A DNA stretch of 64,000 nt from Chthoniobacterales bacterium (GCA_018883245.1 VEQL01000003.1:80478-144477); one strand, 5' to 3'; positions 13,668-41,748 are shown, numbered from the stretch's first letter. Notes: generated by a model not told the origin, from the letters alone. A program made the numbers and translations.

Positions 13668-14464
13668 CGGTGCTTTTCCACGAGGGCGTAGGCGTTGTGG
13701 TTGTGGATGCTTTCGAAATTCTCCGCCTCGACCTGCCACCACGTGATGCGCGGGTCGGCGATGACGTGTGCCGCGACATTGCGGACCACATCCTCGACAA
13801 ATACGGGATTCGCGTAGGCACGCTCGGTCACCGCTTTTTCGTCCGGCCGTTTCAAGACGCTGTAAAGCTCGCTGCTGGCGGAGCGCTCGATGATGGAAAC
13901 CATCTCGTCGAGGGGCAGCGGTTTTTCCGAGCGCAGCCTCAGGGTGACCTGTCCGCGCTGGTTGTGCGCGCCGGAGGCGCTGATGGCTTTCGAGCACGGG
14001 CAGAGCGTGGTGACGTTGGCCACGACCGTCGTGACCAAATCGTGGCCTTTTTCGTCCGCCGTGGCGCTGAAGCGGGCCGTGTAATCAACCAGCCCGGGGG
14101 CTCCAGTGACCGGCGCTTTTTTTTCGAGGAAGAAGGGAAACTCGAACTCCAGATGCGCGCGTTTGCTGTGCAGGCGTTTGATCAGCGAGCGCAGCAGGTG
14201 GCCGATATCTTCGGGGTGGAGGACCGGTCCGTGCGCCTGCAGCACTTCGAGGAACCGGCTCATGTGCGTGCCTTTGAATTCGTGCGGCAGTTCGACGGTG
14301 AGCTGCACGGTGGCGATCGTGCTCTGCGGTTCGCCGGGACCCGCCTTCACGCGGATGGGAAAACGCAGGTTCTTGACCCCGACGCGATCGATGACGATGC
14401 GGCGGTGGTCGAGTTCGCTCTGCGTGTCACGCAGTGGGGCGGCGTCGTCTTCCGGATGCTTCAT
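13664..14464 (-). CDS. folE2: GTP cyclohydrolase I type 2 (FolE2/MptA family)
   Basis: 266 aa. The N-terminal segment (DTQSELDHRRIVIDRVGVKNLRFPI) and an internal CPCS motif are characteristic of FolE2. Confidence 0.85.
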   Translation of the reverse strand: MKHPEDDAAPLRDTQSELDHRRIVIDRVGVKNLRFPIRVKAGPGEPQSTIATVQLTVELPHEFKGTHMSRFLEVLQAHGPVLHPEDIGHLLRSLIKRLHSKRAHLEFEFPFFLEKKAPVTGAPGLVDYTARFSATADEKGHDLVTTVVANVTTLCPCSKAISASGAHNQRGQVTLRLRSEKPLPLDEMVSIIERSASSELYSVLKRPDEKAVTERAYANPVFVEDVVRNVAAHVIADPRITWWQVEAENFESIHNHNAYALVEKHR

Positions 14465-22802: not shown

Positions 22803-23165
22803 ATGGTCACGCTCTCACTCGATCAAGCCTCGGGCGTCCTTTTGCTGCACCCCGCGGGTCCTTTGACCGCGGAAGATTTCACGCAAATTGCCGCGACCGC
22901 CGACCCGTTCATCGAATCCAACGGCAGTCTCAAGGCCGTTGTCATCGAGGCCGCGCATTTTCCCGGATGGGAAAACTTCGGCGCGGCGGCGAGCCACTTC
23001 CGCTTCATCCGCGATCACCACCAAAAGATCCGCAAGGTTGCCATCGTCACCGATTCGCCGCTCGGCGCCGCGGCCGAACACCTGGGCTCTCACTTCGTGG
23101 CCGCCGAGATAAAGCATTTCCCGTCGTCCAGATCGTCCGAGGCGAAAGCCTGGGCTTCTGCATAA
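22803..23165 (+). CDS. STAS/SpoIIAA-like (DUF3478-type) domain protein
   Basis: ATG at 22803. The 120-aa protein with the pattern ...LKAVVIEAAHFPGWENFGAAASHFRFIRDHHQKIRKVAIVTDS... is typical of SpoIIAA-like STAS_2 proteins. Confidence 0.6.
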   Translation: MVTLSLDQASGVLLLHPAGPLTAEDFTQIAATADPFIESNGSLKAVVIEAAHFPGWENFGAAASHFRFIRDHHQKIRKVAIVTDSPLGAAAEHLGSHFVAAEIKHFPSSRSSEAKAWASA

Positions 23166-23266
23166 CCACACGATCCCCAACGGCGTTGAATCACGCGGGC
23201 GTTCGCAGACCGTCCGGGCCAGCGCTCGGGTGTTGGTTGTCGACGCGGGATGCGCGTTGAAACTTC

Positions 23267-25516
23267 TCAGGCTTTCTTCGACCGGCGCCAGCGAACAAAG
23301 CCCGCGCCGCCGAGCAGCATCGCGGCGGCAGCCCACGTGCCGGGTTCGGGGATGATGCCGAACTTGAGGTCCAAGTTGTTGCCGTTCTGGACCAGATAGA
23401 AGCTGCCCTCGCCGAGCGGGTTGAGGAACCCGCCCGTTCCGTTGAAGGCTGCGACGTTCAGATTGAAGTTAGTGCTGTTGAAGCCATTGATGCCGCCGGC
23501 CGCGTTGAGGATGGTCCAAGTGTAGGTGGTCAACTTGTTCGTGGGTGCGGTGAAATTGACCGCGTTACCGTTGGTGTCGGGTGAAACGCCGGAGAGCGAC
23601 CAGAGGTTGATGTTGAACTTGTTCGTATCCGAAAGGCCGGTCAGGTCGAGCGCGCCCGTGATATTGATCAAGTCCCAGCCGGTCGAACTGCCCGCCGCGC
23701 CGGTCGCGTCATGGATTTGCCAGTTGTAGTTGCCGCCGCCGTCCCACGTGGCGTTGCCGGCGATGGTTTGCGTGCCGGGTGAATTGCCCGGGCTGATCGT
23801 GCCGCCGGAGCCGACGATGAGGCCTCCGATCGATCCCGAACCACCGAGGGTGGCTCCGCTTTCCACGGTGAAAATGCTGCTATTGACCGCCCCGTTCACC
23901 ACCATGGTCCCGCCGCTCACGGTCGTCGCGCCGGAATAAGTGCTGGTGCCGGAGAGGGTGAGTGTGCCCGCGCTGTTTTTCGCCAGGCTTCCCGCGCCCG
24001 AGATCGCGCCGGACGAATTGCCCGATTGGACGGTCACGACTGTCGCGTTGCTGATGTTGATGTTGCCGCCGGTGTAGGATTTCACGGCAGTGTTGGCTCC
24101 GGTGACATTGACCGTGCCACCCGAGACGTTGGTGATCGTGGTGTTGTTGCCCGCCACGTTGAGTGTCGCGGTGCTGGTGACGGAAGCCACCGTGCTGTTC
24201 GCCGAGGAGAGTGTCGTCGTGCCCGCGTTGAACTGCGCGCCGCTGACGGTGCCGGCATTGGTCAGCGTGCCGCCGTTGATGATCAGGGCATTGGCGATGC
24301 TGAAGTTGGCGAGGTCCAGCGTGGTGCCGCTGGCCAGCGTGACCGAACCGGACCCGAAGGCCGACGCGTGGCCCGCCGTCAGTGTCCCCCCGTTGAGCAA
24401 CGTGCCGCCGCTGAAGGAATTGGAGGCCGCCAGCGACAATTCGCCGTCACCGGTTTTGGTCAGGCCGCCGGCGCCGCTCATGGCGCCGCTCACGGTCGTG
24501 TTGTTGCTGCCGCTGATGGTGAGCTGGTTGCCGTTGTTGTTGATGGCGCCCGCGAAAGTGAGTTCGCCCGCGGAGGCGTCGAAGGTTTGCGCCGCTCCCA
24601 ACGTGACCTGGTTGGAGAAGGTCTGGCCGTTGGCACTGAGGTTGACGATGCCGTTCGAAACCGTCATGGCATTGCCTGAAATGGAGAAATTTCCGGCGGT
24701 GTTGGTGAAGATGATGCTTTTGAGCTGCAGCGACGAGGAGGAGTTGGTGGTGTTGGTCATCCACGCACCCGCAAAGACCAGCGTGTCGCCGTTCATCGGC
24801 GTGTTGTTGCCGTTCCAGTTGCCATAGGCATTGGTGCTTTCGTAATCATTCCAATTCCCGGTGAAGAGGTCGCCGATCCAAGTCAAAGTGGAGGCCGCGC
24901 GGAGGGTGGCGGTGCCGCTCAGACTGGGGTTCTGGTTGGTTCCGCCTGTCGCGCTGATGGCGGTAGCTCCCTGGTTCCAGCCGTCTCCCCAGGCGGCGGC
25001 ACGAAACGTAGTCATCGTGGTGGCCGCGTTGGATGCGAAAGTGACGTTGAGCGGAGCACCGCCCGCATTCGTGCTGACCGAGTCGGTCGAGGCCAGTGCG
25101 GTGGCGTAATTGTCCCTGTTCCAATACCAACCGGCGCTGGTTCTGCCGTTTGTGGTCCGGTAGAAAATACTGTCGAGGGCCGAGAAACTGAGGGAGTAGT
25201 TGGCCGCCGGCGAGACGGTGAATTGGAAATAATCGCCATTGAGCAATGCCATGGAAGCGCTGCTCGCGCCGAAGCTGTTGGCGGCGAGCGTGTTCAGGAC
25301 ATTGACGGGAGAGATGCCGTAGCCCAGAGTCAGGGGCGTCGCCGCTACACCTGTGGCCGCGTAATTCGTGGCAGCGCTGGCTTGGCCGCCTGTGTCGTAA
25401 ACGCCCCATCTCACGAGATTCGACTGCGCCCAGCCCGGAGAACTTGCGGTGGCAAGCAGCAGAGTGGCGAGGAGGAGACTGCGGTGGAGACCGCTCGGCT
25501 TGGGCTTCGTAGTCAT
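23267..25516 (-). CDS. Autotransporter-associated beta-strand-repeat protein with PEP-CTERM sorting signal
   Basis: 749 aa with a signal peptide. Repeated G-x-L-x-L/T-G-x-N-T-Y-S-G-x-T units (e.g. GTLTLSGTSTYSGATTVSGGTMVVNG). C-terminal IPEPGTWAAAAMLLGGAGFVRWRRSKK (PEP motif, TM, basic tail). Confidence 0.8.
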   Translation of the reverse strand: MTTKPKPSGLHRSLLLATLLLATASSPGWAQSNLVRWGVYDTGGQASAATNYAATGVAATPLTLGYGISPVNVLNTLAANSFGASSASMALLNGDYFQFTVSPAANYSLSFSALDSIFYRTTNGRTSAGWYWNRDNYATALASTDSVSTNAGGAPLNVTFASNAATTMTTFRAAAWGDGWNQGATAISATGGTNQNPSLSGTATLRAASTLTWIGDLFTGNWNDYESTNAYGNWNGNNTPMNGDTLVFAGAWMTNTTNSSSSLQLKSIIFTNTAGNFSISGNAMTVSNGIVNLSANGQTFSNQVTLGAAQTFDASAGELTFAGAINNNGNQLTISGSNNTTVSGAMSGAGGLTKTGDGELSLAASNSFSGGTLLNGGTLTAGHASAFGSGSVTLASGTTLDLANFSIANALIINGGTLTNAGTVSGAQFNAGTTTLSSANSTVASVTSTATLNVAGNNTTITNVSGGTVNVTGANTAVKSYTGGNINISNATVVTVQSGNSSGAISGAGSLAKNSAGTLTLSGTSTYSGATTVSGGTMVVNGAVNSSIFTVESGATLGGSGSIGGLIVGSGGTISPGNSPGTQTIAGNATWDGGGNYNWQIHDATGAAGSSTGWDLINITGALDLTGLSDTNKFNINLWSLSGVSPDTNGNAVNFTAPTNKLTTYTWTILNAAGGINGFNSTNFNLNVAAFNGTGGFLNPLGEGSFYLVQNGNNLDLKFGIIPEPGTWAAAAMLLGGAGFVRWRRSKKA

Positions 25517-25578
25517 GGTAGTAGTTCAGAAATTGCTGCGCTCATGATCGCAGCTTGAGAAAGATGCACGAGATTTTT

Positions 25579-25609
25579 GGGACGAATCGGTGGAAAAGCG
25601 GGACGAATC
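25579..25609 (-). promoter_or_regulatory. Candidate LytTR-type operator: two GATTCGTCCC repeats (read on the minus strand) with 21-bp periodicity
   Basis: The plus strand reads GGGACGAATC at 25579-25588 and again at 25600-25609. The reverse complement matches the element at 28270-28300 at 26 of 31 positions, including the spacer. It lies in the divergent intergenic region between 23267..25516(-) and the HK gene. Confidence 0.5.
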
Positions 25610-25688
25610 TGCGGAAGGTCACGGTGTGGTGCGCGATGACCTTTACGCGGTCTTGTCTTTTGCGTCCTCCGCGCGTTACGTGCGCGTG

Positions 25689-27524
25689 ATGTCACGACCG
25701 GTCCGGATCACGCCTTGGTGTTTGTGCGTCGCGCTGTTTGTGTGGTTGCCGGCGATGGCGCGTGCGGCGGAACCGTCGCCGGTGGTCATCGACGGGCAGC
25801 CTTTTCTCGCCGAGCTCGGACCGCATCTCGCGTTGCTGCAGGACCCCTCGGGCGCGCTGACGATCGATGACGTGCTGACACCGGGGCAGGCTTCGCAGTT
25901 CGTGCCCGCATCCGTGCCGGTGCCGACGTTCGGCTTCACCAAGGCCGCGGTCTGGATGCGCTTCGAGATCGAATCGCGCAGCGCGCGTGACGAACCGCTA
26001 ATGGTCGAGTTGGGTATGGCGCGGATGAGCCGGTTCGAATGGTATGTGGTGGCCGACGGCCGGCTCGAGCAGGGCAGGCAAACGAACCACCGACCGGGTT
26101 CATTGCGGAGCGGGGATGGCTGCCGATATCCGACGTTGTCGCTGGTTGTGCCGGCCGGCGGGAAACGGACGGTCTTGGCGCGTGCGCAGACGGATACCTC
26201 GATGTGGTTGCCCTTGACCGTGGGGTCGCCGCTGGAGTTCGACAATTTCACCGCGCGGCGCGACTTCCGCGATTTCGTGCAGGTGGGATTTTGTGCCGCG
26301 TTGTCTTTGCTCGGATTCGGGCTCTGGCTGGCGGGCGGGCGCAACCGGCAATTCCTCGGCGTGGGGGTGGCCATGGCCTTCGGGTTGCTGCATGCGATGA
26401 TCTTCAACGGTCTCTATGTCTGGTTCGGTGGCCCGTGGCCTGAGTGGTTCTCGCGTCAGGGTGCGCTGCTCTGCTCCATGCTCTTCACCATCGTCTTCAT
26501 CAAATTCAACGAAGACTTCCTCGGCTGGAACGCATTGTGCGCGGCGCAGAGGCGGGTGTTGGCGGCCAGCTATGTCGTGGGCGCTATCGCGTTGGCCATC
26601 GGACTTTTTCTGCCCTACGGCATCGCGGTGAAATTCCAGTTGCCGCTGCAGCTTCTCGCTCTCGGCGGTGCGGCCGGCGTGGCCGCGACGCAGTGGGTCC
26701 GTTGCCGGGGTGCACGCCTCGGCTTGTTCACCACCGCGTGGCTCATTTTTCTCGGATCGCTCGGTCTGCTCGTCATGCAGTTCAACGGCCTTCTTCCCGT
26801 GCTCCTGTCGCCGGCCGACGTGATGCGCATTATTGTGCCTTCGGTCTTCGTGGTTTTCCTGCTGGCCAGCGCCAATTCCTACCGCGCCGTCCTGCAGATG
26901 CAGACGCAGGTGGCGGAATTGCGCGAGGCCGAGACGTCGGCTCGTCTCGAGTCGCTGCGCTACCAGCTCAATCCGCATTTTCTGTTCAACACGCTCACCT
27001 CGATCCAGGAACTTGCGCACGAGGCACCGGCGCGCATCCCGCCTCTCGTCGCGCGTCTGGCCGACTTCCTGCGTCTACGACTCAAGCCGGAGCCGTTGCC
27101 CGTCATCACTCTGGCGAAGGAGTTGGAATCGGTGCGCTCCTACCTCGAGATCGAGCAGGTGCGCTTCGAGGAGCGGCTGAAGGTCGACTATGACATCTCT
27201 GCCGAGGCCGCCGCCTGTGCGTTGCCCGAGATGGTGCTCATGCCTCTCGTCGAGAATGCCGTGAAATACGGCTTCGAAGATTCCGACCGCGTCGGGATCC
27301 GCCTGATGGCGCGCGTGCAGGACGGCCGCTTGAACATTCGGGTGGAGAACAACGGTTCGTTGCACGAGGGGCGTCGCCGCGGCTCCGGCGCCGGGGTGGG
27401 GGTGGAAAACATCCGGCGGCGCCTCGAACTGCGCTACGGCAGCGCGGCCCGTTTCGATTTGCGGCAGGAGGGCGGACACGTGGTGGCGGAGGTGGAAATT
27501 CCGGCACAGACCCCGCAAGTATGA
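25689..27524 (+). CDS. Sensor histidine kinase, 7TMR-DISM-type N-terminus with LytS/His_kinase + HATPase C-terminus
   Basis: ATG at 25689 gives a signal peptide. A periplasmic beta-rich domain is followed by about 7 TM helices, then LNPHFLFNTL (LytS-type phosphoacceptor) and an ATPase with the NAVKYG box. Stop overlaps the RR start (ATGA). Confidence 0.85.
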   Translation: MSRPVRITPWCLCVALFVWLPAMARAAEPSPVVIDGQPFLAELGPHLALLQDPSGALTIDDVLTPGQASQFVPASVPVPTFGFTKAAVWMRFEIESRSARDEPLMVELGMARMSRFEWYVVADGRLEQGRQTNHRPGSLRSGDGCRYPTLSLVVPAGGKRTVLARAQTDTSMWLPLTVGSPLEFDNFTARRDFRDFVQVGFCAALSLLGFGLWLAGGRNRQFLGVGVAMAFGLLHAMIFNGLYVWFGGPWPEWFSRQGALLCSMLFTIVFIKFNEDFLGWNALCAAQRRVLAASYVVGAIALAIGLFLPYGIAVKFQLPLQLLALGGAAGVAATQWVRCRGARLGLFTTAWLIFLGSLGLLVMQFNGLLPVLLSPADVMRIIVPSVFVVFLLASANSYRAVLQMQTQVAELREAETSARLESLRYQLNPHFLFNTLTSIQELAHEAPARIPPLVARLADFLRLRLKPEPLPVITLAKELESVRSYLEIEQVRFEERLKVDYDISAEAAACALPEMVLMPLVENAVKYGFEDSDRVGIRLMARVQDGRLNIRVENNGSLHEGRRRGSGAGVGVENIRRRLELRYGSAARFDLRQEGGHVVAEVEIPAQTPQV

Positions 27525-28255
27525 AGCCGGTGCGTTGCCTCGCTGTCGATGACGAGCGCCTTGCGCGCCGGCATGTCGTGCGTTTGCTTTCCACGCGCCC
27601 GGACATCGTGGTGGTGGGCGAAGCGGGCAGCAAAGCCTCCGCCCTGCGGGCCATTCGCGAGCACCAACCGGAATTGCTCCTGCTCGATGTGCAGATGCCG
27701 CGCGGTGGCGGTTTCGACGTGCTTGCCGCCTTGGACAACCCCCCGCATGTGATCTTCGTCACCGCATTCGACCGTCACGCCACCCACGCCTTCGAGGTCA
27801 ACGCGATCGACTTCCTCCTCAAACCGATCAACGAGGAACGTTTCCACCGTTCCCTCGATCGCGCGGTGCGGCTCATCCGCAGCGGCGCACTCGATGTCGC
27901 GGCGGTCAGGCCGCAATTGCAACCGGACGATCTCGCGCTCGTGCCGCTCGGCGGATCGGGGCGCTTTGTCGGCGTGGACGACATTGTTCTTGTCGAAGCC
28001 CAGGGAAATTACTCGCGCATCACCACGCGCGACGGGAAACACCTCACCGCGCGGCAGACGCTCAAGCAGTGGTCTGCCTGCCTGCCGCCGGAAATGTTCG
28101 TGCAGCTCGATCGCGGGCTTATCGTCAATCGTCACTGCATCCGCACGGCCGAATTTTCCGTGCGCTCGGCGCTGGTCAGGCTCGGGGAGCACGGCCAGAA
28201 ACTGCATTTGGGTGCGGCCGCGGCCTCGCGCTTGCGCGAATTGCTCGCGCCTTGA
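27521..28255 (+). CDS. LytTR/AlgR-family response regulator
   Basis: Receiver domain (VDDERLAR..., LLLLDVQMP, FVTAFD). C-terminal LytTR DNA-binding domain (LVEAQGNYSRITTRDGKHLTARQTLKQW). Confidence 0.9.
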   Translation: MKPVRCLAVDDERLARRHVVRLLSTRPDIVVVGEAGSKASALRAIREHQPELLLLDVQMPRGGGFDVLAALDNPPHVIFVTAFDRHATHAFEVNAIDFLLKPINEERFHRSLDRAVRLIRSGALDVAAVRPQLQPDDLALVPLGGSGRFVGVDDIVLVEAQGNYSRITTRDGKHLTARQTLKQWSACLPPEMFVQLDRGLIVNRHCIRTAEFSVRSALVRLGEHGQKLHLGAAAASRLRELLAP

Positions 28256-28269
28256 GACATTATCGCGCC

Positions 28270-28300
28270 GATTCGTCACGGTTTTACGCCGATTCGTCAC
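28270..28300 (+). promoter_or_regulatory. Candidate LytTR-type operator: two GATTCGTCAC repeats with 21-bp periodicity
   Basis: CGCCGATTCGTCAC occurs perfectly at 28266-28279 and 28287-28300. The element sits between the RR stop (28255) and the PEP-CTERM gene start (28342). An ATAAAT -10-like hexamer lies at 28320-28325. Confidence 0.5.
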
Positions 28301-28341
28301 ATGTTTTTCGACGACACAAATAAATCGCGCTTCAGTGAAGC

Positions 28342-29049
28342 ATGCGCAAGTTGCCCATTTTCCTCGCCGCTGTAGCCACACTGGCCTTCGTTCCCGTGCA
28401 AGCCGCGATCATTTTCACCGTCAACGGCACCGTGACGACAGCGGCCGCCGGATGGAACCTCAACGACCCGGTGACGTTCACTTGGACATTGGCCGGCAAC
28501 ACGCCCGAAGCATCAGCCGGCGCCACGACCATGACCTGGTCTGAGGAACTGTCCACGCAACCGGTCCTTTTCGCCAATGTGACCGGCACCGGACTGACGG
28601 GGACTTATACCCGGCCCGTCCAATTCCTCGGCAGTCCGTATTCTTTTCTCCAAGTGAATCTCGAGCCAGCGACCCTCATTTACGCAGGAACCGATGCGGA
28701 GTTTATCGGGCTCTACGCGCCGAACAGCTCTCAAGTGTTCAGGGTCTTTGCCAACGTAGGAGCCGCGTTCGGTTATGCCATGCAAAATCCCGCGCCGTCG
28801 CCCGATACCTACTTTCCGAGCTATTTGGGAACATACAGCTCGGTCACGACTTCATCCTATCCCATCCAAAGTTCCGTCAGCACCGCGAGCGGAACGATGG
28901 AGTTTAGCCCGACCTCATTCACCATTTCCCAAGTCACAGAACCCGTTCCCGAACCCGGCACCTGGGTCGCCGCGGCGCTGCTCGCCGGCGGTGCGGCTTT
29001 CGTGCGCTGGCGCAAACGCCGCGACGAAGGGCCGAAAGAAGCAGCCTGA
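28342..29049 (+). CDS. PEP-CTERM sorting-domain secreted protein (hypothetical)
   Basis: Signal peptide MRKLPIFLAAVATLAFVPVQA. C-terminal VPEPGTWVAAALLAGGAAFVRWRKRR. No other recognised domain. Confidence 0.75.
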   Translation: MRKLPIFLAAVATLAFVPVQAAIIFTVNGTVTTAAAGWNLNDPVTFTWTLAGNTPEASAGATTMTWSEELSTQPVLFANVTGTGLTGTYTRPVQFLGSPYSFLQVNLEPATLIYAGTDAEFIGLYAPNSSQVFRVFANVGAAFGYAMQNPAPSPDTYFPSYLGTYSSVTTSSYPIQSSVSTASGTMEFSPTSFTISQVTEPVPEPGTWVAAALLAGGAAFVRWRKRRDEGPKEAA

Positions 29050-29052
29050 ACG

Positions 29053-31341
29053 ATGCGCGCCCGCAACCTGAAAACCCCGCGCAAGTTCAGCGTTGTCATG
29101 GCGCCGCCTTCCGCGATCGCCGGTTTTTTCCTTGCGGCCTTTCTCTTTCTTGCTCCCGCCGCGCAAGCGGCGGACGGGACATGGAGCGGGGGTTCGGGCA
29201 GCTTGTGGAGCGACACTGGCAATTGGAGCGCGTCGCCGGTGCCGGGTTCGGGCAACACGGCGACGTTCAATAGTGCCGGCAACGGCAACACCACCATCGA
29301 TTTGGGCGTGGGTGTGACGATCAGCAACCTTGCGTTTGATACCGCGAATGCCGCGGCTTACACGATCGGTTCGGGTGCGGTCGGTTCACAGACGAACACC
29401 CTCAATAACAGCAACGCTGTCATCGCGGTGGCCGGAACGGTCGCCAATAGCCAAGTCATCAACGCCAACATCGTGCTGGGCACCGCGATCACGGGCACGA
29501 CGCGCATTGCCAATGACGCTTCTGGCGCCAGTGGTGTGGCTCTGAATTTGGCCGGCAACATCACCGGCGGCACGGGAGGAACGGCAGGGACAAAAACCGT
29601 GATTGTTTCCGGGACGGGTGCGGTGAACCTCCAAGGCGCCATAACCAGAGGCGGAGCGAGCAGCCTCAATTTGTTGAATCTCGGAACAGGAACTATGACG
29701 CTCAGCGGCAGTGCCACCAGCGTTCTCAGCACCCTGCGGGCCACGAACTCAAGTGGTCGCATCATCGTGGATGGTCAAACCGTCAACGTGAGCTCTAACT
29801 CACAATTCGGAAATAGCAGCGGCAACGGAGGAAGTTTTGAACTGAGATCGGGAAGCGCAACATTCTCCAATGGCCTCACAGGCACCGGTGCCTACGCTGC
29901 CCAGGAAGTTAAAATCACCGGCGGAACATTCACTGCCAGCACCGTCTCCGCGACCAACATCGTGGTCAACGGCGGAACTTTTTCCAGCGGCATCACGCGA
30001 GGTGCGTTCACGCTCGATGGTTCAGCGGCTGCCGCCTACATCGGCGCCAACATTGCGTCGAACACTCCCCTCGTAAATCTCGTGCAGGGCACGCTCGGCG
30101 CGAAGGTGGCATCCGTTGTCATCAATAACCCCAGTCTCACTTTGTCTGGCGCAGAAGTGACAATTAAGGCTGCCGATGCCGGCGATGTGGCACGCACCAT
30201 AAGCATCTGGAGCCCCGTTTCCGGAGCCTATGGATTTACGAAGACGGGCGGTGGAGCGCTGAAGATCGAGACAGCTGCCACTAATGCGATCGATAGTCCG
30301 GCGACACTCAACACCTACAGCGGCACGACCACGCTGGAAGCCGGGCAGCTGATTCTAAACAAACCCACGGCTTTGGGCACTGGCGCCTTCGTCATTCTCG
30401 GGGGCTCTATTGACTGCACGACCTTCATGTATACGAACGTCACTCTCAGCAACAACAATGCGCAGAGCTGGAACGGTGACTTCGCCTACGTCGGTTCCGT
30501 CACAAATTTGAACCTCGGCGCAGGCGCGGTGACGATGAACGCCAGCCGCACGGTCACCGTGAGTAACAACGAACTCACCGTGGGCGGCGCGATCAGCGGA
30601 TCCGGCTACGGTTTGACAAAGGCGGGCGCGGGCACGCTGAACCTTACCGGCGCGAGCACCTATTCGGGCGCCACGGCGGTGAACGCGGGCACGCTCAAGG
30701 TGAACGGATCGGTGGACAGCAGCGTGACCGTGAACAGCGGCGGCACGCTGGCCGGCAGCGGCTATGTCGGCGGGCTCATCGTCGGTTCGGGTGGCACGAT
30801 CAGTCCGGGCAACTCTCCGGGCACGCTCACGGCCACCAACGCGGTGTGGAATGCCGGCGGCAACTACAACTGGCAGATCTATAACGCCACGGGCGCGGCC
30901 GGTTCGGGTTGGGACTTGCTGACCGTCACCGGAACACTCGACCTGTCCGCACTTTCCGTCGGCAGCGAATTCAACATCAACATATGGTCCTTGTCGCAGG
31001 TCACACCCGACGTGGACGGCGAGGCGATCAACTTCAACCCGGCGCAAAATTACTCTTGGACCATCGCCACCGCGTCGGGCGGTATTACCGGCTACAGCGG
31101 CACCAGCCAGTTTTTGATCAACACCAACGCCACCAAAGGCGCCGCCGGTTTTGCCAACCTGCTTGATGGCGGTAACTTCTCCGTCGTTAAGAGCGGAAGT
31201 AATCTCAACCTTGTCTTCACCTCGGCCAGCGCCGCGGTCCCCGAACCCGGCCCATGGGCGGCGGCAGCGCTGCTCGCCGGCGGCGCAGGCTTCGTGCGCT
31301 GGCGCAAACGCGCGAATGTTTCCCAAGGGCAGGGAACGTAG
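29053..31341 (+). CDS. Autotransporter-associated beta-strand-repeat protein with PEP-CTERM sorting signal
   Basis: 762 aa with a signal peptide. Same repeat type as 23267..25516 (e.g. GTLNLTGASTYSGATAVNAGTLKVNG). A paralogous C-terminal module (GGLIVGSGGTISPGNSPGT...NYNWQI...) is followed by VPEPGPWAAAALLAGGAGFVRWRKR. Confidence 0.8.
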   Translation: MRARNLKTPRKFSVVMAPPSAIAGFFLAAFLFLAPAAQAADGTWSGGSGSLWSDTGNWSASPVPGSGNTATFNSAGNGNTTIDLGVGVTISNLAFDTANAAAYTIGSGAVGSQTNTLNNSNAVIAVAGTVANSQVINANIVLGTAITGTTRIANDASGASGVALNLAGNITGGTGGTAGTKTVIVSGTGAVNLQGAITRGGASSLNLLNLGTGTMTLSGSATSVLSTLRATNSSGRIIVDGQTVNVSSNSQFGNSSGNGGSFELRSGSATFSNGLTGTGAYAAQEVKITGGTFTASTVSATNIVVNGGTFSSGITRGAFTLDGSAAAAYIGANIASNTPLVNLVQGTLGAKVASVVINNPSLTLSGAEVTIKAADAGDVARTISIWSPVSGAYGFTKTGGGALKIETAATNAIDSPATLNTYSGTTTLEAGQLILNKPTALGTGAFVILGGSIDCTTFMYTNVTLSNNNAQSWNGDFAYVGSVTNLNLGAGAVTMNASRTVTVSNNELTVGGAISGSGYGLTKAGAGTLNLTGASTYSGATAVNAGTLKVNGSVDSSVTVNSGGTLAGSGYVGGLIVGSGGTISPGNSPGTLTATNAVWNAGGNYNWQIYNATGAAGSGWDLLTVTGTLDLSALSVGSEFNINIWSLSQVTPDVDGEAINFNPAQNYSWTIATASGGITGYSGTSQFLINTNATKGAAGFANLLDGGNFSVVKSGSNLNLVFTSASAAVPEPGPWAAAALLAGGAGFVRWRKRANVSQGQGT

Positions 31342-31446
31342 AGGGCCGTGGCCCGCGATCGGTTCCGCCTTTCGAATTCGCGGCCAAGCTGTCCACCATT
31401 TGCCATATGGTGACAGCGCGTTAAGGTGCGGGGGATTTTTTGTTCC

Positions 31447-33258
31447 ATGGAAAACGAAGAGCCGAACATTTTTGTAAAGACGGGATCCGCGGTGGCCGAC
31501 TTTTTCACCCGCTGGTGGCGCGAGGCGACGGGCCCGATCGAATGGCATCACGCGCAGACGCCATTCCATGCGGTTTTGCGTCGCGTTCTGCTGTGGGTTC
31601 CGGTGGCGGTTTTGGCGGCTGTGGTTTTCGGCTCGATCGGGTTGCACTTTTTTGTCGGCTGGCGGGCGCGCGATCTGGCACGCAAGGCGGTGGCCAGTGC
31701 GGAGGAGGGGCGGTGGCCGGCGGCGCAGGTGCAGATCGGTTCGGCCCGCAACCTCCGCCCTGAGGATCCGGCCGTGCAATGCGCGCTCGCGGTCATCGAG
31801 ACGAAGATGGGGTTGCCTTCGGCCGCAAAGACGTGGAGTCAATTGCCCGAAGGTTTTCAACTGACCAAGGAGGAACTCGAAGCGCGGGCCTTGGCCATGA
31901 TGCGCAACGGCGACGAACCGCAATATGCCGAGGCTCTGGCTGCGCTGGAGGAGGCCGGGTTCGGGGCCGAGGCTGCGGCCATCCGGGTGGAGAGGAATGT
32001 GTCCCGCGGCAATTTGCAGCAGGGTATCGCCGAAGCGCGTGCGGCTGTGCGGTCCTCTGACACCCCGGCCCACCGACTCACTTTGGCGCGTCTTCTGTTG
32101 GCCCGGCATGGTGTTTTCCTGCAAAGCTCGAACTCGCCCGGGCCCGAAGATCTCGCGGGTGCGAAGGAAATTTCGGACATCGCGGACTCTCTGCTGGGCG
32201 CACCCGAAGGCGAGCAACTCTTGGCTTTGATCTTCGCCAATTTGCGTCTTACGGGGAGCCAACGGCAGCGCTGGTCCGCCGCCGCATGGAAACGTCCCGC
32301 CCCGGACAACCCCGCTTTGCTCCCCGCCGCCACGGCTATGATCGCTGCCGGCGATGCCACAAGGGAGGAAATGACCAACCGGCTCAAAGCCGTGTATGCA
32401 GGGGCCGAGCCTTCACGGAAAACCGCCTTGGCCGCATGGCTGGTCATGCACGGCGGCGATCCCGAGGGTGCCCTGGTTTATCTGCCACCCGCGGAAGCAA
32501 CGCGCCATGCCAACGCGTTCCTCGCGCGCTGCGCAGCGTTGTCCTCGTTGGGCCGATGGGAGGAGTTGCGTGCGCTGGCCGAAGGACCTGGCAGCGTGCC
32601 TCGCAGCTTGATGTCCGCCGTGGCGGCGCAGGCGAACGCCAAACTTGATCGCGGAGCGCAGGCCGAGAAATTTGCGCAGGACGCCGTGCGCACCGCCGCC
32701 CGCGAAGGCACCATCGTCATGACCCTGCGCCTGCTCGACGAATCGGGATTCCGCGAACTGGTCGACAGGGAGGTTGTTGCGCTGTGCGGCGAAACCGGGA
32801 CATCGGAGCTTTTCTTCCGCTTGGCGCGCGAACGCTTCGGCCGCGGGGGGCAACCGGCAAGCCTGCAAGCCGCTTACGAACGTGCCGCCGGAGCTTCCCC
32901 GCACGCCACGGCCGTCCAGAGCCAACAACTTTATGACAGACTGCTCTCCGGGTCTCCTGTCGATCCACAGCAAACCGCCGCCGCGCTGGCCGCGTCGCCC
33001 ACAGATGTGAATCTTCGCCTGACGCACGCCCTCGCTCTGCTCAAAACCGGCCGTGCGGCCGAAGCCCTGGCCGTCTTCGATGAATTCGACGTTTTCGTCG
33101 AACAGTTGCCGCCCGGCCAGCAAGCCATCGCCGCCGCCATTCTCGGTGCCAACGGCCAAGGAAAGGCGGCAGAGCAACTGGCTCGCTCGCTCGACCCCGA
33201 CTATCTTGCCCCCGGTGAGTATGCCCTCATTGCGGAATGGCGGGCGGCCAAAGACTGA
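31447..33258 (+). CDS. Hypothetical N-terminally anchored, Ala-rich helical-repeat (TPR-like) protein
   Basis: ATG at 31447 (the track start at 31426 is GTG). One TM (VLLWVPVAVLAAVVFGSIGLHFFVGW) is followed by about 520 aa of Ala/Leu/Arg-rich helical repeats. No catalytic motif recognised. Confidence 0.5.
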   Translation: MENEEPNIFVKTGSAVADFFTRWWREATGPIEWHHAQTPFHAVLRRVLLWVPVAVLAAVVFGSIGLHFFVGWRARDLARKAVASAEEGRWPAAQVQIGSARNLRPEDPAVQCALAVIETKMGLPSAAKTWSQLPEGFQLTKEELEARALAMMRNGDEPQYAEALAALEEAGFGAEAAAIRVERNVSRGNLQQGIAEARAAVRSSDTPAHRLTLARLLLARHGVFLQSSNSPGPEDLAGAKEISDIADSLLGAPEGEQLLALIFANLRLTGSQRQRWSAAAWKRPAPDNPALLPAATAMIAAGDATREEMTNRLKAVYAGAEPSRKTALAAWLVMHGGDPEGALVYLPPAEATRHANAFLARCAALSSLGRWEELRALAEGPGSVPRSLMSAVAAQANAKLDRGAQAEKFAQDAVRTAAREGTIVMTLRLLDESGFRELVDREVVALCGETGTSELFFRLARERFGRGGQPASLQAAYERAAGASPHATAVQSQQLYDRLLSGSPVDPQQTAAALAASPTDVNLRLTHALALLKTGRAAEALAVFDEFDVFVEQLPPGQQAIAAAILGANGQGKAAEQLARSLDPDYLAPGEYALIAEWRAAKD

Positions 33259-33440
33259 GCGCAGGACCGCACTGCGCGGCAAGATTGTCCCTGTGCTGGG
33301 TAATCGGGCTTTTTCGGTTTCTGCTGCTTCGCCGCAAGCGACTTCGATGACGCGCGGCTTTCCTGTGTCCGGAATTCCATGATCTCGGCGCTGCGGAAAG
33401 AGTTTGACCGCCGAATTACGGTGCTTAGTTTGTGCACCTC

Positions 33441-33761
33441 ATGAGCCTTGGGCGCCGCTTCCGTATCCTTTGGATGGCCGGTCTGTCGCTGTTGGCGGTG
33501 ACTCAACTCACCCATGCGTTCGAGCATTGGGAGATCGCCGCCAATGCGGATTGCGTGTCTCACGCCCATGCCGATGCAGACCATGGCGACGGCGGTTCGC
33601 GCCACGATCACGGCTGCACTTCGCATGACCACGCACCAGCGCTTCCGGGCGGCATCTTTCTGCTCACCGTCACCGAAACGGTCGCCGTCGTGTCGTCGGA
33701 TCATCTCGGAGTGCCTGCGCCGCGATCGTCTTCGATCGATCACCCGCCTCAATTGTCCTGA
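33441..33761 (+). CDS. Small His/Asp/Cys-rich putative periplasmic metal-binding protein (CzcI-like position)
   Basis: ATG at 33441. Signal-like N-terminus (RILWMAGLSLLAVTQLTHA), then HWEIAANADCVSHAHADADHGDGGSRHDHGCTSHDHAP. Located directly upstream of the czcC-like gene. Confidence 0.45.
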   Translation: MSLGRRFRILWMAGLSLLAVTQLTHAFEHWEIAANADCVSHAHADADHGDGGSRHDHGCTSHDHAPALPGGIFLLTVTETVAVVSSDHLGVPAPRSSSIDHPPQLS

Positions 33762-33880
33762 CCTGCGACAGGCGAAGTGTGCCTGTCGCCCCGGCGTGTC
33801 TGCCGGACCCGCGCATCTCTTGCCGGATGCGTTCATGCCGCCGACCGGCGCGGCTCGAGTATCTGCCGGTCATCAGGACC

Positions 33881-35191
33881 ATGAAAACACAATCAACATT
33901 CGGGAAAATTGCGATCGCGCTCTGCGCGGTGGTCGCATCGGAAGGCGCCGCTGCGGAGTTGTCGCTGCAGGATGCGGTCAACACCGCGCTGATGAACAAC
34001 CGCGAACTTGCCGCGGCACGCCATGTGGTGGGGCAGGGGCAGGGGCGCTTGCGCCAGGCGGGCCTGCTGCCCAATCCCGAGGTGGAGTTCAACGGCTACG
34101 GCGATTTTGTTTCCGGCTCCGAAGGCGAGGGGGCTTTCGTCATCGGGCTGCACCAGTGGTTCCCGCTGACGGCGCGGCTCGGCTTGGCGCGGCAGGTGGC
34201 CCGCGTCGATGTGGCCATGGCGCTCCGCGAAGTGCGCAACCGCGAACGTCTGCTGGTCGCCGAGGTGCAGAAAGTTTACGCGCGCGCCCAGGCGGCCCGC
34301 CGTCGTGAGCAATCCTCGGCCCAGGCACGCAACGATTCGTCCGACCTCGTGTCGCTCGCGGGAGAGCGGCTCGCCTCGGGTCAGGGTTCGCTCGCCGAGT
34401 CCGCACTCGCCCGTGTGGACGAGCAGCGCTGGGGAAATGCGGCTGATGTCGCGGCGGCCGAAGCGGAAAAATGCCTCCTCGAAATGAAAACGGCGCTCGG
34501 CCTGGGCGCCGACGCTCCGCTCTCTCTCACCCAGTCGCTGAAGTCGGTGGTCGATGAGTTGCGCGACAAAGCGCGGAGCGGGCGCATTTCCTGCCGTCCC
34601 GACATGGAACTGGCCATGCTGGCCGCGGACAAATCGTCCGCCGAAGTCGCGTTGGCCAAGGCGGGCGCGTGGGAGGGAATTCGTCTCGGCATCGAATACA
34701 TGCAGGATCGAAGCGTGGACCAACCGGGCGGGATTTCCACCGGGGATTTTCTCGGCGTGAAAGTCACGCTTCCTTTGCCGGTGTGGGACCGCAAGGTGGG
34801 CGAAACACAGGAGCGTCAGGCTGCGGCGGAAGCCAAAGCTGCGCAGTTGCGCGCGCTCGAACTCGAGGTGGCCAACGACATCGCTGCCGCGCGCCAACAG
34901 GCGGCTTTGTTCGAGAAGCAGTGGTCGCGATACCGCGGGACAACAGAACCGCTGGTCGAGTCGGGAAGCCGCGAAATTTCGCAGGGATTCAGCGAGGGCC
35001 GCGTCGATGCGCGCGATCTCCTGATGGTCCGGGCGCAGAACGCGAGCCTGCGCGTCGAATCAACAGCCATGCTGGAAAACCTTGCCCTCGCGCTCATCGA
35101 TCTTGAAGCGGCGGCGGGAAGTCATCCGGCCATGTCCGCGCCGTATTTGCAAGAGGCGCCGCTGCACCGCAGGAAGAAAACGAAATCATGA
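33881..35191 (+). CDS. czcC: TolC-family outer-membrane efflux protein (CzcC-like)
   Basis: ATG at 33881 gives a signal peptide. Two OEP repeats (LSLQDAVNTALMNNRELAAAR...). 436 aa. Stop overlaps the following ATG (ATGA). Confidence 0.85.
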   Translation: MKTQSTFGKIAIALCAVVASEGAAAELSLQDAVNTALMNNRELAAARHVVGQGQGRLRQAGLLPNPEVEFNGYGDFVSGSEGEGAFVIGLHQWFPLTARLGLARQVARVDVAMALREVRNRERLLVAEVQKVYARAQAARRREQSSAQARNDSSDLVSLAGERLASGQGSLAESALARVDEQRWGNAADVAAAEAEKCLLEMKTALGLGADAPLSLTQSLKSVVDELRDKARSGRISCRPDMELAMLAADKSSAEVALAKAGAWEGIRLGIEYMQDRSVDQPGGISTGDFLGVKVTLPLPVWDRKVGETQERQAAAEAKAAQLRALELEVANDIAAARQQAALFEKQWSRYRGTTEPLVESGSREISQGFSEGRVDARDLLMVRAQNASLRVESTAMLENLALALIDLEAAAGSHPAMSAPYLQEAPLHRRKKTKS

Positions 35192-35192
35192 A
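35158..35192 (+). repeat. Direct repeat copy 1 (35 bp) covering the czcC 3' end, stop and overlapping ATG
   Basis: gccgctgcaccgcaggaagaaaacgaaatcatgaa is identical to 37614-37648. Checked base by base. Confidence 0.95.
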
Positions 35193-37596
35193 CCTCCCGG
35201 CTTCGCACTCACCGGCGACGATGGGGAAACCCGCTCCCGCATTCGTGTTCGATCCGCTTCCCGAATGGCCGAAAGACGCCGCCCCATCTGTTTATCCCTT
35301 CGTTCGACCGAATCTGCCGGGCGAGGCACCAACCCCCGACCCGCTGCGGAACACGAGCTTCGACGCCGACCTCGCGCATCGCGCGTGCACGGAGCTGGTC
35401 TCCTACGCGCTGAGGCCGGTCGCACACCATGCGTCCCCCGCAGGAAGTTTCGTTGTCCACGACGCCGGCCTCGAAATCGAAGTGCGCGGCCCCGGCGAGT
35501 TGCGCTTGGACTTCGGCGTCGTAAGTGCAGGCTGGCTGGAGTTCGAGTGCGATTCGCTCCCGGAAGGCGTGACGCTCAGCATCAGCGAATACCTGCGTCC
35601 CGCCTTGGTGAACGCCGGGGCGGTCAATCCGGTGAAGACCGCCCGGCCCATGCGGGTCGCGGGCTCGACCTGGCGCCTGACGCTCAACCCCGAGTTCTAC
35701 GAAGGCGTGCGCTTTGGCTGGCTGCACGCCCCCGAAGTAGCCCCGTGGCGGCTGCGCAACCTCCGCCTTGTCTGCCAAGCCCGGCCCGCGAACTACCTCG
35801 GCTCCTTCTCGTGCGACGATCCCATCTTGGAACAGATCTGGGAGGTCGGAGCCACGACGGTGCGGCTCAATTTTCTCAAGGACTACATCGGCGCGATCCT
35901 CATGGAACGCAGCGACCGCCACTCGTGGACAGGAGACGCCCATGTTTCCCAGGCCGTGGCCATGCCGGTGTTTGGCAACTTCGGCTTTGTGCGCGCCAAC
36001 CTCGACCGCACCGCGGGCGACACCAACGGGATCGAGGGCTTCTCGCTGTATTGGATTCTCTCGCTCCTCGACTACGTGTTGTGCTCCGGCGATCGCGAAG
36101 CGCTCCGCCACTACCTGCCGACCGTGCGCGCGAAGCTCGACCACGCCATGTCGGTCGTCTCCAAGCGGCTCCCGCTGGTCTTTTGCGGACACGACGACCG
36201 GACAGGTGGCGCCTTCGAAGAGCCCGACATCGAGGAGAACCGCCGCTTCTTTCACTATCTCGCTTGGAGAACCGTGCGGGCGGTGCGAGATGTGCTCGAC
36301 TGGATCGACGGCGACGCCAAGACGGCGGAATGCTGCGACCGGTGCGAGTCCTTGCTCTCCGTCAATCGTCCCCCCGCGATTGAGGCGGGGCTGCACGAGG
36401 GAACCGAGGCGATCCTCGCCGGCCAGCCAGTGGATGCCGCGTTCCTGGAACGTGAATACCAAAACCCCGCGCGTTTCGTCTCCTACTCGCCATTCAACAA
36501 TTTCTTCGTGCTTCAGGGCATGACCGCGGCGGGCTGCCACACCTCCGCGCTCGCTTTGCTCAAGCGATGCTGGGGTGAGATGCTCGCGCTCGGTGCCACG
36601 ACGTTCTGGGAATCGTTCCGGCCGGAGTGGCGCGACTTTCTCCCCGCCTGCGAGCAGATCCCCAACGGCATGCATGGCTTCACCAGCCTCTGCCATCCGT
36701 GGAGCGCCGGCCCGACACGCTGGCTGACGGATCATGTGCTCGGCATCCGCCCGATCTCCCCGGGCTACGCCGACTTCGTGTTCGATCCGATTTCCGACAG
36801 GCCCCGCATCGTTTCAGGATCGGTGGCCACGCCGCATGGAGTCATTCGCGCGGGCATTGATGACGACGTCGCTTGGGTCGAGGTGCCCGCAGGCTGCCGC
36901 TGTCATGTGAACGGCCGCGCCTGCCCGGCCGGGCGGCACGAGGGCCTGTCCCTGCCTCGCTCGAAATCGTCGAACACGGCCGCGCCCGAGCCGCGATACG
37001 CCGGCCGCTGGGAACCGGACGGCACGCTGGCGGACGCGATGTCGGGAGGAGCCGAGTGGATCGCGTTCTCGGCCCAGGCGCCAGACGCGGACCTGAGCAA
37101 AATCCGCTCCGCCACCGAGGTCATCGTGCCCGACCAGCGCCCCCACGGTCGGGCCTGGAGACACCATTACGCCGATGTGCAAGGCCCCTTCTCCGGAGCG
37201 CTTCGCACCTGTTATCCCTCCGTGGTTCAACAAACCTTCACAGTGGATGTGCGGCGTCCGAAGAGCGTTGCCTACCGCCTTGGCATCTATTGCCGGGACC
37301 TGCACCGCGAAGGGATTCGCCAAACGGTGGAGGTCCTCGGGCTCGACAGCAAAACCCTGCTCGCCCCGACTCGCCTGCTTGAAAATTTCCAAGACGGGCT
37401 AGTCCTCTGGATCGGCTGCACCGGCGGCGTGCGTATCCGCATCTGCGACTTCCCGGGCATAAACGCTTCCCTCAACGGGCTCTTCTTCTCAACCCAGACC
37501 ATGCCACATGGCCACCCACCCAACACCGGCAGAGTTTGCCAAGCCAACGAACCAGTTTCGTCCCTGGCTGTTTCTGGTCCTCAACGACGAGCATGA
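35188..37596 (+). CDS. GH78-like (alpha-L-rhamnosidase family) six-hairpin glycosidase with C-terminal extension
   Basis: 802 aa. ERSDRHSWTGDAHVSQ resembles the GH78 R-D-E-R-x-G-W-T-G-D-A motif. TTFWESF...SLCHPWSAGPTRWLTDHVLGIRP resembles the (alpha/alpha)6 catalytic domain end. No signal peptide seen. Confidence 0.6.
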   Translation: MNLPASHSPATMGKPAPAFVFDPLPEWPKDAAPSVYPFVRPNLPGEAPTPDPLRNTSFDADLAHRACTELVSYALRPVAHHASPAGSFVVHDAGLEIEVRGPGELRLDFGVVSAGWLEFECDSLPEGVTLSISEYLRPALVNAGAVNPVKTARPMRVAGSTWRLTLNPEFYEGVRFGWLHAPEVAPWRLRNLRLVCQARPANYLGSFSCDDPILEQIWEVGATTVRLNFLKDYIGAILMERSDRHSWTGDAHVSQAVAMPVFGNFGFVRANLDRTAGDTNGIEGFSLYWILSLLDYVLCSGDREALRHYLPTVRAKLDHAMSVVSKRLPLVFCGHDDRTGGAFEEPDIEENRRFFHYLAWRTVRAVRDVLDWIDGDAKTAECCDRCESLLSVNRPPAIEAGLHEGTEAILAGQPVDAAFLEREYQNPARFVSYSPFNNFFVLQGMTAAGCHTSALALLKRCWGEMLALGATTFWESFRPEWRDFLPACEQIPNGMHGFTSLCHPWSAGPTRWLTDHVLGIRPISPGYADFVFDPISDRPRIVSGSVATPHGVIRAGIDDDVAWVEVPAGCRCHVNGRACPAGRHEGLSLPRSKSSNTAAPEPRYAGRWEPDGTLADAMSGGAEWIAFSAQAPDADLSKIRSATEVIVPDQRPHGRAWRHHYADVQGPFSGALRTCYPSVVQQTFTVDVRRPKSVAYRLGIYCRDLHREGIRQTVEVLGLDSKTLLAPTRLLENFQDGLVLWIGCTGGVRIRICDFPGINASLNGLFFSTQTMPHGHPPNTGRVCQANEPVSSLAVSGPQRRA

Positions 37597-37613
37597 ACGC
37601 GGTCCTGGCGAAA

Positions 37614-37648
37614 GCCGCTGCACCGCAGGAAGAAAACGAAATCATGAA
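37614..37648 (+). repeat. Direct repeat copy 2 (35 bp) immediately 5' of and including the czcB start
   Basis: Identical 35-mer, 2456 bp downstream of copy 1. In the czcC reading frame it again encodes PLHRRKKTKS-stop. Confidence 0.95.
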
Positions 37649-38597: not shown

Positions 38598-38601
38598 TCC
38601 C

Positions 38602-41744
<3,143 letters not shown>

Positions 41745-41748
<4 letters not shown>

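Follow-up and report, generated by a model that had tools for sequence, protein, structure and literature searches.

Direct-repeat pairs as predicted LytTR operators of PEP-CTERM genes in a Chthoniobacterales bacterium

The binding sites of LytTR-type regulators have been described as two repeats of 9-11 nt with spacers of 11-13 nt (PMC4847170) and as a pair of 9 bp direct repeats with a spacing of 10-13 bp (PMC11347149). The majority of LytTR regulators act as activators from a position just upstream of the -35 element (PMC11347149). AgrA binds a pair immediately upstream of the agr P2 and P3 promoters, at about -60 (PMC4227749), and YpdB of E. coli recognizes the 10-nt motif GGCATTTCAT in a direct repeat and occupies the two sites cooperatively (PMC4847170). 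Here we describe a repeat pair of this type in a stretch of 64,000 nucleotides from a Chthoniobacterales bacterium, an uncultured verrucomicrobium from soil or freshwater (GCA_018883245.1, VEQL01000003.1:80478-144477; the whole stretch is referred to as the window), located between the gene of a LytTR response regulator and a gene encoding a PEP-CTERM protein. The architecture of this pair is that of a canonical LytTR operator, and it belongs to a well-known kind of element. Sequence comparisons indicate that it probably acts as the operator of the adjacent LytTR regulator and controls PEP-CTERM genes.

PEP-CTERM proteins are abundant in Verrucomicrobia and have been tied to exopolysaccharide and to floc or biofilm formation (PMC1569441, PMC9850573). 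Their regulation has been described only for Proteobacteria, in which it involves PrsK/PrsR/PrsT and sigma-54 (PMC1569441, PMC9850573). Haft et al. (2006) reported a Proteobacteria-only cis site upstream of PEP-CTERM genes, with a phylogenetic profile matching those of PrsK, of the sigma-54-type regulator PrsR and of PrsT. The same authors listed Verrucomicrobium spinosum with 65 PEP-CTERM proteins and without PrsK, PrsR and PrsT, and noted that more PEP-CTERM regulators and motifs were still to be found (PMC1569441). In the literature that we searched, we found no paper that treats PEP-CTERM and LytTR proteins together.

Two repeat pairs at the kinase and regulator genes

The gap between the stop codon of the regulator gene (28255) and the ATG at 28342 is 86 bp long and contains the 14-mer CGCCGATTCGTCAC twice on the plus strand, in exact copies at 28266-28279 and 28287-28300 that are spaced 21 bp start to start. 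In order, the sequence up to the start codon contains TGAGACATTATCG, CGCCGATTCGTCAC, GGTTTTA, CGCCGATTCGTCAC and ATGTTTTTCGACGACACAAATAAATCGCGCTTCAGTGAAGC, followed by the ATG. Because GTTTT trails both copies of the 14-mer, the 21-bp units 28266-28286 and 28287-28307 are identical at 17 of 21 positions. The pair, termed operator B here as a putative operator, begins 10 nt past the regulator stop codon, and an ATAAAT hexamer is present at 28320-28325, 19 nt beyond the second copy. A first-pass annotation of the sequence had given the two copies, their 21-bp spacing, the 86-bp gap and the ATAAAT, and every one of these coordinates is correct. It had also recognized a LytTR-type geometry, with direct repeats of roughly 9-10 bp and a separation of about 12 bp, in agreement with the published descriptions (PMC4847170, PMC11347149). 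The features found at operator B are two direct repeats (14-nt exact copies), a period of 21 bp, an adjoining LytTR gene and conservation in orthologous loci.

The first-pass annotation was right about the pair at 28266-28300 and overlooked a second one. A mismatch-tolerant search of the window with the 14-mer CGCCGATTCGTCAC identified this pair, putative operator A, on the minus strand at 25579-25613. The two pairs and the genes between and around them are as follows.

25689-27524, plus strand: sensor histidine kinase with 7TMR-DISMED2, 7TMR-DISM 7TM, LytS-type His_kinase (PF06580) and HATPase domains (Pfam).
27521-28255, plus strand: response regulator with Response_reg and LytTR (PF04397) domains (Pfam, E 1.2e-19 and 4.2e-13).
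28266-28279, plus strand: distal half-site of putative operator B, CGCCGATTCGTCAC, exact, fitting the family half-site GC(C/A)GATTCGTC(A/C)C.
28287-28300, plus strand: promoter-proximal half-site of putative operator B, CGCCGATTCGTCAC, an exact copy 21 bp downstream (model match 28267-28301).
25600-25613, minus strand: distal half-site of putative operator A, CGCAGATTCGTCCC, in the divergent intergenic region between a PATR/PEP-CTERM gene and the kinase gene.
25579-25592, minus strand: promoter-proximal half-site of putative operator A, CACCGATTCGTCCC (model match 25578-25612, minus strand), with 62 nt to the ATG at 25516.
28342-29049, plus strand: first predicted target of operator B, a secreted PEP-CTERM protein of 235 aa with a signal peptide and the tail VPEPGTWVAAALLAGGAAFVRWRKRR (TIGR02595).
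29053-31341, plus strand: second predicted target of operator B in the same operon, a PATR beta-strand-repeat protein of 762 aa with a PEP-CTERM tail, starting 3 nt past the previous stop codon.
23267-25516, minus strand: predicted target of operator A, a PATR protein of 749 aa with a PEP-CTERM tail, 52-56% identical to the target of the operator in the related locus L001.

Operator A has the 21-bp period and shares its core with operator B, and the spacers of the two are alike and T-rich (GCTTTTCC versus GGTTTTAC). It points to the divergent PEP-CTERM/PATR gene (23267-25516, minus strand). At the same time it is located 75 nt upstream of the kinase ATG at 25689, in the opposite orientation, so that a bidirectional autoregulation through operator A is possible. 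ATG 25689 is almost certainly the true start of the kinase gene, as judged from the sequence: it gives a kinase of 611 aa with a signal-anchor-like N terminus, and orthologues have 604-611 aa. The mechanically called open reading frame (ORF) starts at GTG 25590, is 33 codons too long and would run over operator A.

The repeat in operator B is highly non-random. For exact direct repeats that are 14 nt or longer and have a period of up to 40, first-order Markov simulations predict 0.03 occurrences in the window, and two are present. The pattern GATTCGTCNC-N9-13-GATTCGTCNC has two matches in the window, pair B and 25579-25609 on the minus strand, and none in 100 shuffles. We then scanned the window, with filters off, with a sequence-only model (R1) built from 15 sites outside the window in related metagenomic loci. 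The match at 28267-28301 has a score of 34.7 bits with an E of 8.8e-10, and that at 25578-25612 (minus strand) has 32.4 bits with an E of 4.5e-9. Only these two matches, corresponding to operators B and A, are significant, the third-ranked match being a lone half-site at 6.9 bits (E 0.52). A PEP-CTERM tail pattern applied to all ORFs of the window identified only three genes, precisely those behind operators A and B. The other exact repeat of the window, CGGGCGCGTCGGAGGG at 13520-13556, is 16 nt long and has a 21-bp period too. It lies in coding sequence (ORF 12765-13997, minus strand), where it gives rise to a 7-residue repeat (PSDAP...) in the linker at the N terminus of a lipoprotein with a Peptidase_S11 domain (D-Ala-D-Ala carboxypeptidase), and was rejected as a related element on account of this coding repeat.

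Conservation among related loci and wider distribution

For comparison we used metagenomic contigs that carry regulators 56-77% identical to that of the window, amounting to ten kinase/regulator modules with the window included (individual loci are given as L numbers). The element adjoins nine of the ten modules, and there are 17 sites altogether, among them operators A and B. The period is 21 bp in all 17. Across these sites the columns of TTCGTC(A/C)C show no or almost no variation, and GC(C/A)G(A) stands before them; the family half-site consensus is GC(C/A)GATTCGTC(A/C)C. A G follows the distal copy, an A follows the proximal copy, and the spacer between them is T-rich; outside the element the flanks hold essentially zero information. 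All 17 elements are oriented toward the downstream gene. The first downstream gene encodes a PEP-CTERM-tailed protein at 14 of the 17 sites, as does the second gene at one more. The first-pass annotation had named two outcomes that would speak against an operator, absence of the element from orthologous promoters and an equal frequency of such pairs in coding sequence. Both are contradicted within the sequence available.

As a negative control, we examined 449 kb around 80 LytTR regulators that are 30-44% identical to that of the window (among the matches listed), together with L184 and L185. Model R1 had no match in the 80 distant-regulator loci and one weak match in L184 (E 0.033), and a count of core pairs in the distant-regulator loci gave background levels only. 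By these scans the element is specific to this regulator clade and its neighbourhood, as predicted for an operator of the adjacent regulator. The second site in the locus, the element with its period of 21 at nine of ten modules, the detection by model R1, the lack of matches at distant regulators and the geometry known from the literature together provide strong computational support for the proposal, already made in the first-pass annotation, that pair B is an operator of the adjacent LytTR regulator and controls the PEP-CTERM operon. The weak match in L184 (5767-5799, minus strand; 13.4 bits) is a degenerate pair (TTCACC / TTCGTC) on a 1.56-Mb contig whose regulator is 53% identical. It is oriented away from the gene downstream, the product of which is a classical autotransporter and not a PEP-CTERM protein.

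An exact-pattern scan with TTCGTCMCGNTT-N9-TTCGTCMC over 185,579 species genomes yielded 94 stretches; the source genome was not among them, and we used the result qualitatively. Many of the 94 are chance or coding matches, for example six near-identical matches in Rhizobium. Several others are extended direct repeats in intergenic regions of other Verrucomicrobiota, Firmicutes, Acidobacteriota, Myxococcota, Bacteroidota and Gammaproteobacteria. A LytS-type kinase and a LytTR regulator are encoded within the 8-kb stretch in 8 of the 94 (tblastn), and an ORF with a LytTR domain is present in 14 (hidden Markov model search); by a rough estimate, this co-occurrence is well above chance. In the LytTR-linked stretches the pair immediately precedes the kinase/regulator operon, immediately follows the regulator gene or is in the divergent region. 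In the Firmicutes loci L056, L058 and L022, a textbook TTGAAA-17-TATAAT promoter begins 6-8 nt past the end of the pair. The form TTCGTC(A/C)C-N13-TTCGTC(A/C)C occurs in L056 (4430), L058 (5214), L022 (6107), L079 (7192), L091 (759) and others, often beside LytTR genes and 6-8 nt ahead of a canonical -35/-10 promoter. These sequences suggest a widespread LytTR specificity class with an AlgR-like core. Downstream of the distant verrucomicrobial pattern matches we found no PEP-CTERM-tailed proteins, and the link to PEP-CTERM genes is therefore claimed for the close clade only.

Promoter geometry and alternative explanations

To compare promoters, the 17 sites were aligned on the end of the proximal half-site, from which positions with a plus sign are counted. 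In the first 13 sites, positions +8 to +10 are T (12/13), T or C, and G (11/13), and a TTGnnn hexamer begins at +8 in at least 10 of the 17. The best -10-like hexamers, for example TAGTTT, TATATC, TAATTT, TAGCTT and GATCAT, have their first base between +28 and +31 at about 13 of the 17 sites, 16-17 nt beyond the -35-like hexamer. This family geometry would set the centre of the pair near -60. Positions +20 to +25 have no conservation across the 17 sites, and the position of ATAAAT is kept in none of the other 16. At the two operators of the window, the candidate elements are the following.

28308-28313, plus strand: candidate -35-like TCGACG, 7 nt after operator B; the L186 sequence aligned with TCGACGAC is TTGACGAC.
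28331-28336, plus strand: candidate -10-like TTCAGT, a weak match at the family-conserved distance.
28320-28325, plus strand: ATAAAT, taken as the -10 in the first-pass annotation, at the non-conserved positions +20 to +25.
25566-25571, minus strand: candidate -35-like TCGTGC, 7 nt after operator A.
25544-25549, minus strand: candidate -10-like GATCAT, 29 nt after operator A (starting at +30) and 16 nt after the -35-like hexamer.

The candidates at operator A agree with the family spacing. With TTCAGT as the -10 at operator B, the transcript would start at or beside the A of ATG 28342. An in-frame TGA is present at 28336-28338, upstream of this ATG, and the gene therefore has no longer ORF. 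The ATG is at +42 in operator B and at +44 in two sites of related loci (L003 +6766 and L182 +5776), and these distances suggest leaderless or near-leaderless mRNAs at all three. A perfect palindrome, GCTTCA-g-TGAAGC (GCTTCAgTGAAGC, 28329-28341), abuts the ATG at 28342 and overlaps the predicted -10 and transcript start. As a second operator it was rejected, since related promoters do not keep it, and it could be a site of another regulator or incidental.

The comparisons show the repeat sequence, its departure from chance, its conservation and the genes around it; activation rather than repression, the promoter elements, the transcript start, the signal and the binding are inferred in the following model. 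Operators A and B would serve the kinase/LytTR regulator pair encoded at 25689-28255. The kinase would detect an extracellular signal, with DISMED2 hinting at a carbohydrate-type ligand, as is suggested for this domain family, and would phosphorylate Asp56 of the regulator. Two regulator molecules would then bind head to tail on the half-sites GC(C/A)GATTCGTC(A/C)C, which are separated by the T-rich spacer and, being 21 bp apart, lie on the same helix face. The proximal half-site would end 7 bp upstream of a weak -35-like hexamer and the pair would be centred near -60, comparable to AgrA at P2/P3, and the bound dimer would recruit RNA polymerase. Operator B would drive the gene of the 235-aa PEP-CTERM protein and the PATR/PEP-CTERM gene, and probably also a following gene for a TPR-like protein (see below), from a transcript that begins at or a few bases from ATG 28342. 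From operator A, the regulator would activate the divergent PATR/PEP-CTERM gene. With these assignments, a hitherto anonymous two-component system of an uncultured member of the Chthoniobacterales would become a concrete circuit with a 35-bp operator, two promoters and a small PEP-CTERM/PATR regulon. The site model can be used for mapping regulons in metagenome-assembled genomes (MAGs), and the near-invariant geometry, with its 21-bp period, T-rich spacer and 7 bp to the -35, provides a natural series on how a LytTR dimer reads DNA.

Several observations do not fit this model well. At operator B both hexamers, TCGACG and TTCAGT, are weak, and the best -10 match is instead AATAAA/ATAAAT at +19/+20, unlike at any other site. 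A consensus promoter scan of 23000-33500 gave zero sigma-70-type promoters. An empty generic scan is as expected for activator-dependent promoters, and the promoter elements therefore derive entirely from the comparison across sites. The first-pass annotation had taken ATAAAT (28320-28325) as the -10. In that case the proximal half-site would cover the -35 position, with its end at about -32, and the arrangement would be that of a class II activator; from the same position the regulator could equally repress a basal promoter, GTCACA-17/18-AATAAA/ATAAAT. The hexamer is present as annotated, 19 nt downstream of the repeat. It is the best -10-like match between operator B and the ATG, it is 11 bp (one helical turn) nearer to the operator than the family -10 so that phasing would be preserved, and there are only 41 nt to the ATG, which leaves scant room for a leader. 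However, among the 17 sites only operator B has a -10-like element at +19 to +25 (information content about 0). In most of the others the -35-like element is at +8 and the -10-like one at +28 to +31, and the homologous promoter of L186 keeps TTGACGAC at +8 without an ATAAAT. Moreover, the example in the literature of a LytTR operator that covers the -35 is that of CoxC, which represses, and not one of class II activation (PMC11347149). We thus consider the class II arrangement an unlikely promoter sub-model, and less likely than the family geometry.

Related loci also complicate the assignment of the pairs to the adjacent regulator. In L185 a PEP-CTERM gene follows the regulator gene without a recognizable pair. 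Just upstream of the kinase gene, this contig breaks off within another PEP-CTERM gene; L182 has its site in this region, and a site of L185 might be in the missing upstream part. L003 and L005 are paralogous modules 8 kb apart on one contig of 212,855 bp that have near-identical operators (five sites), and the adjacent regulator therefore need not be the sole binder. The pairs could be genuine LytTR operators that are bound chiefly by a paralogous regulator encoded elsewhere, or are shared, with the adjacent system as one input of a cross-regulated network. The operator consensus shared by these two modules would agree with this, as would two paralogues of the TPR-like protein that are encoded on another contig of the source MAG and suggest further modules there. 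The sites are nevertheless tightly linked to their modules, being located within about 30 nt of the regulator stop codon or in the divergent region, and control in cis is the simplest explanation; we regard binding chiefly by a paralogue as improbable. The shared operators of L003 and L005 also pose the question of how cross-talk is avoided.

A pair without any regulatory role, originating from a recent tandem duplication or slippage, from chance or from a mobile-element remnant, is extremely unlikely. The two copies are exact, as they would be in a young duplication, but the locus has a second, non-identical pair with a common core and spacing, the element is kept down to 56% regulator identity while the flanks diverge, and an E of 8.8e-10 with the model and a chance expectation of 0.03 such repeats do not agree with an accident. 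Equally slight is the chance that the element acts as RNA, either by terminating or attenuating transcription behind the regulator gene or as a structure in the 5' leader of the PEP-CTERM mRNA. Its start 10 nt past the regulator stop codon and the T run after each copy would be compatible with such a role. However, the predicted fold of 28236-28345 is no more stable than that of shuffled sequences (z = -0.09), Rfam has zero matches, and no G+C-rich hairpin precedes the T runs, and on these grounds a terminator or RNA element was rejected. In addition, operator A and several orthologous sites are located in divergent promoter regions, in which no upstream transcript ends.

Comparison with described systems and neighbouring genes

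With the predicted promoter elements, the operators would resemble those of AgrA (Staphylococcus aureus) at P2/P3 in having their centre near -60 and a suboptimal core promoter; AgrA sites show DNA bending (PMC4227749, PMC4847170). The half-site sequence is unrelated, however, and AgrA acts in a firmicute, with the peptide-sensing kinase AgrC and with the quorum-sensing operon and RNAIII as targets, whereas the locus described here has a 7TMR-DISM/LytS-type kinase and PEP-CTERM proteins as predicted targets. With YpdB (PyrR) and BtsR (YehT) of E. coli the locus shares a kinase with a His_kinase PF06580 core together with a LytTR regulator, but it differs from them in its motif, and in E. coli the targets are transporters. 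Unlike BtsS, which has 5TMR-LYT and GAF domains, the kinase of the window has 7TMR-DISMED2 and 7TMR-DISM_7TM as its input (PMC10653868). BtsR is the top NCBIfam match of the regulator, at 125 bits against a cut-off of 246 that is not reached. Orthology to BtsS/BtsR was rejected because of this score and of a kinase input that is not 5TMR-LYT.

AlgR of Pseudomonas aeruginosa is likewise a LytTR regulator, and the TTCGTC core is identical to that in the AlgR 9-mer CCGTTCGTC (PMC4787818, PMC4064291). In our half-sites (CCGATTCGTC or CAGATTCGTC) the CCG is offset by one base in comparison to CCGTTCGTC. AlgR sites do not form direct repeats with a 12-bp spacing (PMC4064291), whereas the geometry of the pair is invariant here. 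As a candidate AlgR binding site, defined by the 9-mer with one or two mismatches tolerated, the element was rejected because of the displaced CCG, and by its sequence the likeness is a resemblance and not membership. CoxC and RcoM bind direct repeats of about 8 nt with a spacing of 12-13 bp, sometimes three in a row (PMC11347149), which can be compared to the third half-site found in L187 (5578-5628), precisely 21 bp upstream of a pair. They differ from the regulator of the window in being one-component sensors (MHYT or haem-PAS) and in their motif, TTNNNGCN, and the operator of CoxC overlaps the -35 and represses (PMC11347149).

The regulator itself consists of receiver and LytTR domains only (Pfam), and its sequence is 100% identical to that of a protein from a Chthoniobacterales MAG (Verrucomicrobiota). 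Receiver residues D10, D11, D56 and K101 are invariant among 32 relatives. A PDB sequence search with the regulator matched the receiver domain alone and was uninformative on DNA recognition. Among the predicted targets, the protein encoded at 28342-29049 matches TIGR02595 at 18.2 bits (cut-off 16), and the PEP-CTERM tails encoded at 29053-31341 and 23267-25516 were recognized by eye and by the pattern. We found no exosortase (EpsH/Xrt) among the 26 ORFs of the window scanned with Pfam.

The gene right after the PEP-CTERM operon is also conserved in this neighbourhood.

31447-33258, plus strand: membrane-anchored TPR-like solenoid protein, a conserved neighbour with homologues in five related loci beside operator-bearing intergenic regions.

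The protein of the window has 603-610 aa, one N-terminal transmembrane helix and TPR matches in Pfam that are sub-threshold only. Its AlphaFold (AF2) model is all-alpha with a pLDDT of 90.5, and the top Foldseek matches in PDB, where identifiable, are the TPR superhelices of Ctr9, IFT70, Naa15, subunits of the APC/C and the TPR domain of OGT, with TM-scores that are low, as is usual for solenoids. A search of NCBIfam with the ORF (31426-33258) gave no match at E <= 0.01, PrsT (TIGR02917) included. The source MAG has two TPR-like paralogues, FGM15_10860 and FGM15_10880, on another contig of 30.5 kb. The TPR-like protein is probably a third component of the system or a co-regulated gene. From its modelled structure it is possible that the protein is analogous to PrsT without being a member of the PrsT family.

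The parallel to PrsK/PrsR/PrsT consists in a kinase, a regulator, a TPR protein and a cis site before PEP-CTERM genes, here made up of non-homologous parts. PrsR is a sigma-54 enhancer-binding protein acting at a -24/-12 promoter, whereas the locus described here has a LytTR regulator and a sigma-70-like -35/-10 spacing. Membership in the PrsK/PrsR/PrsT system was rejected, given a regulator of receiver and LytTR domains only, the -35/-10-like spacing and the lack of a TIGR02917 match. Tentatively, and with somewhat less than even confidence, we suggest that a dedicated, non-homologous verrucomicrobial sigma-70/LytTR counterpart of PrsK/PrsR/PrsT is formed by the 7TMR-DISM kinase, the LytTR regulator, the conserved TPR-like protein and the two operators. 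A genome would have several paralogous copies of it with one operator sequence, and some targets would be leaderless. If true, the question that remained in 2006, how PEP-CTERM genes outside Proteobacteria are controlled, would be answered. The second operator, the predicted clade-wide PEP-CTERM regulon, a third, TPR-like gene and the likeness to PrsK/PrsR/PrsT add to the interest of the locus.

Genes for SpoIIAA-like proteins (PF11964) of 120 aa recur behind the PEP-CTERM targets of related loci (L003 9186-9548, L005 10918-11280, L182 6400-6762 and L183 8825-9187), and none was seen beside the module in the window. There, the module is followed by an RND efflux cluster at 33779-41748, with an outer-membrane efflux protein encoded at 33779-35191 and an AcrB-family pump at 38602-41748. 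The longest ORFs in between are 35188-37596, which has a weak match to a rhamnosidase domain, and 37686-38636 on the minus strand. Both may be mis-called, because a membrane-fusion protein is expected at this position.

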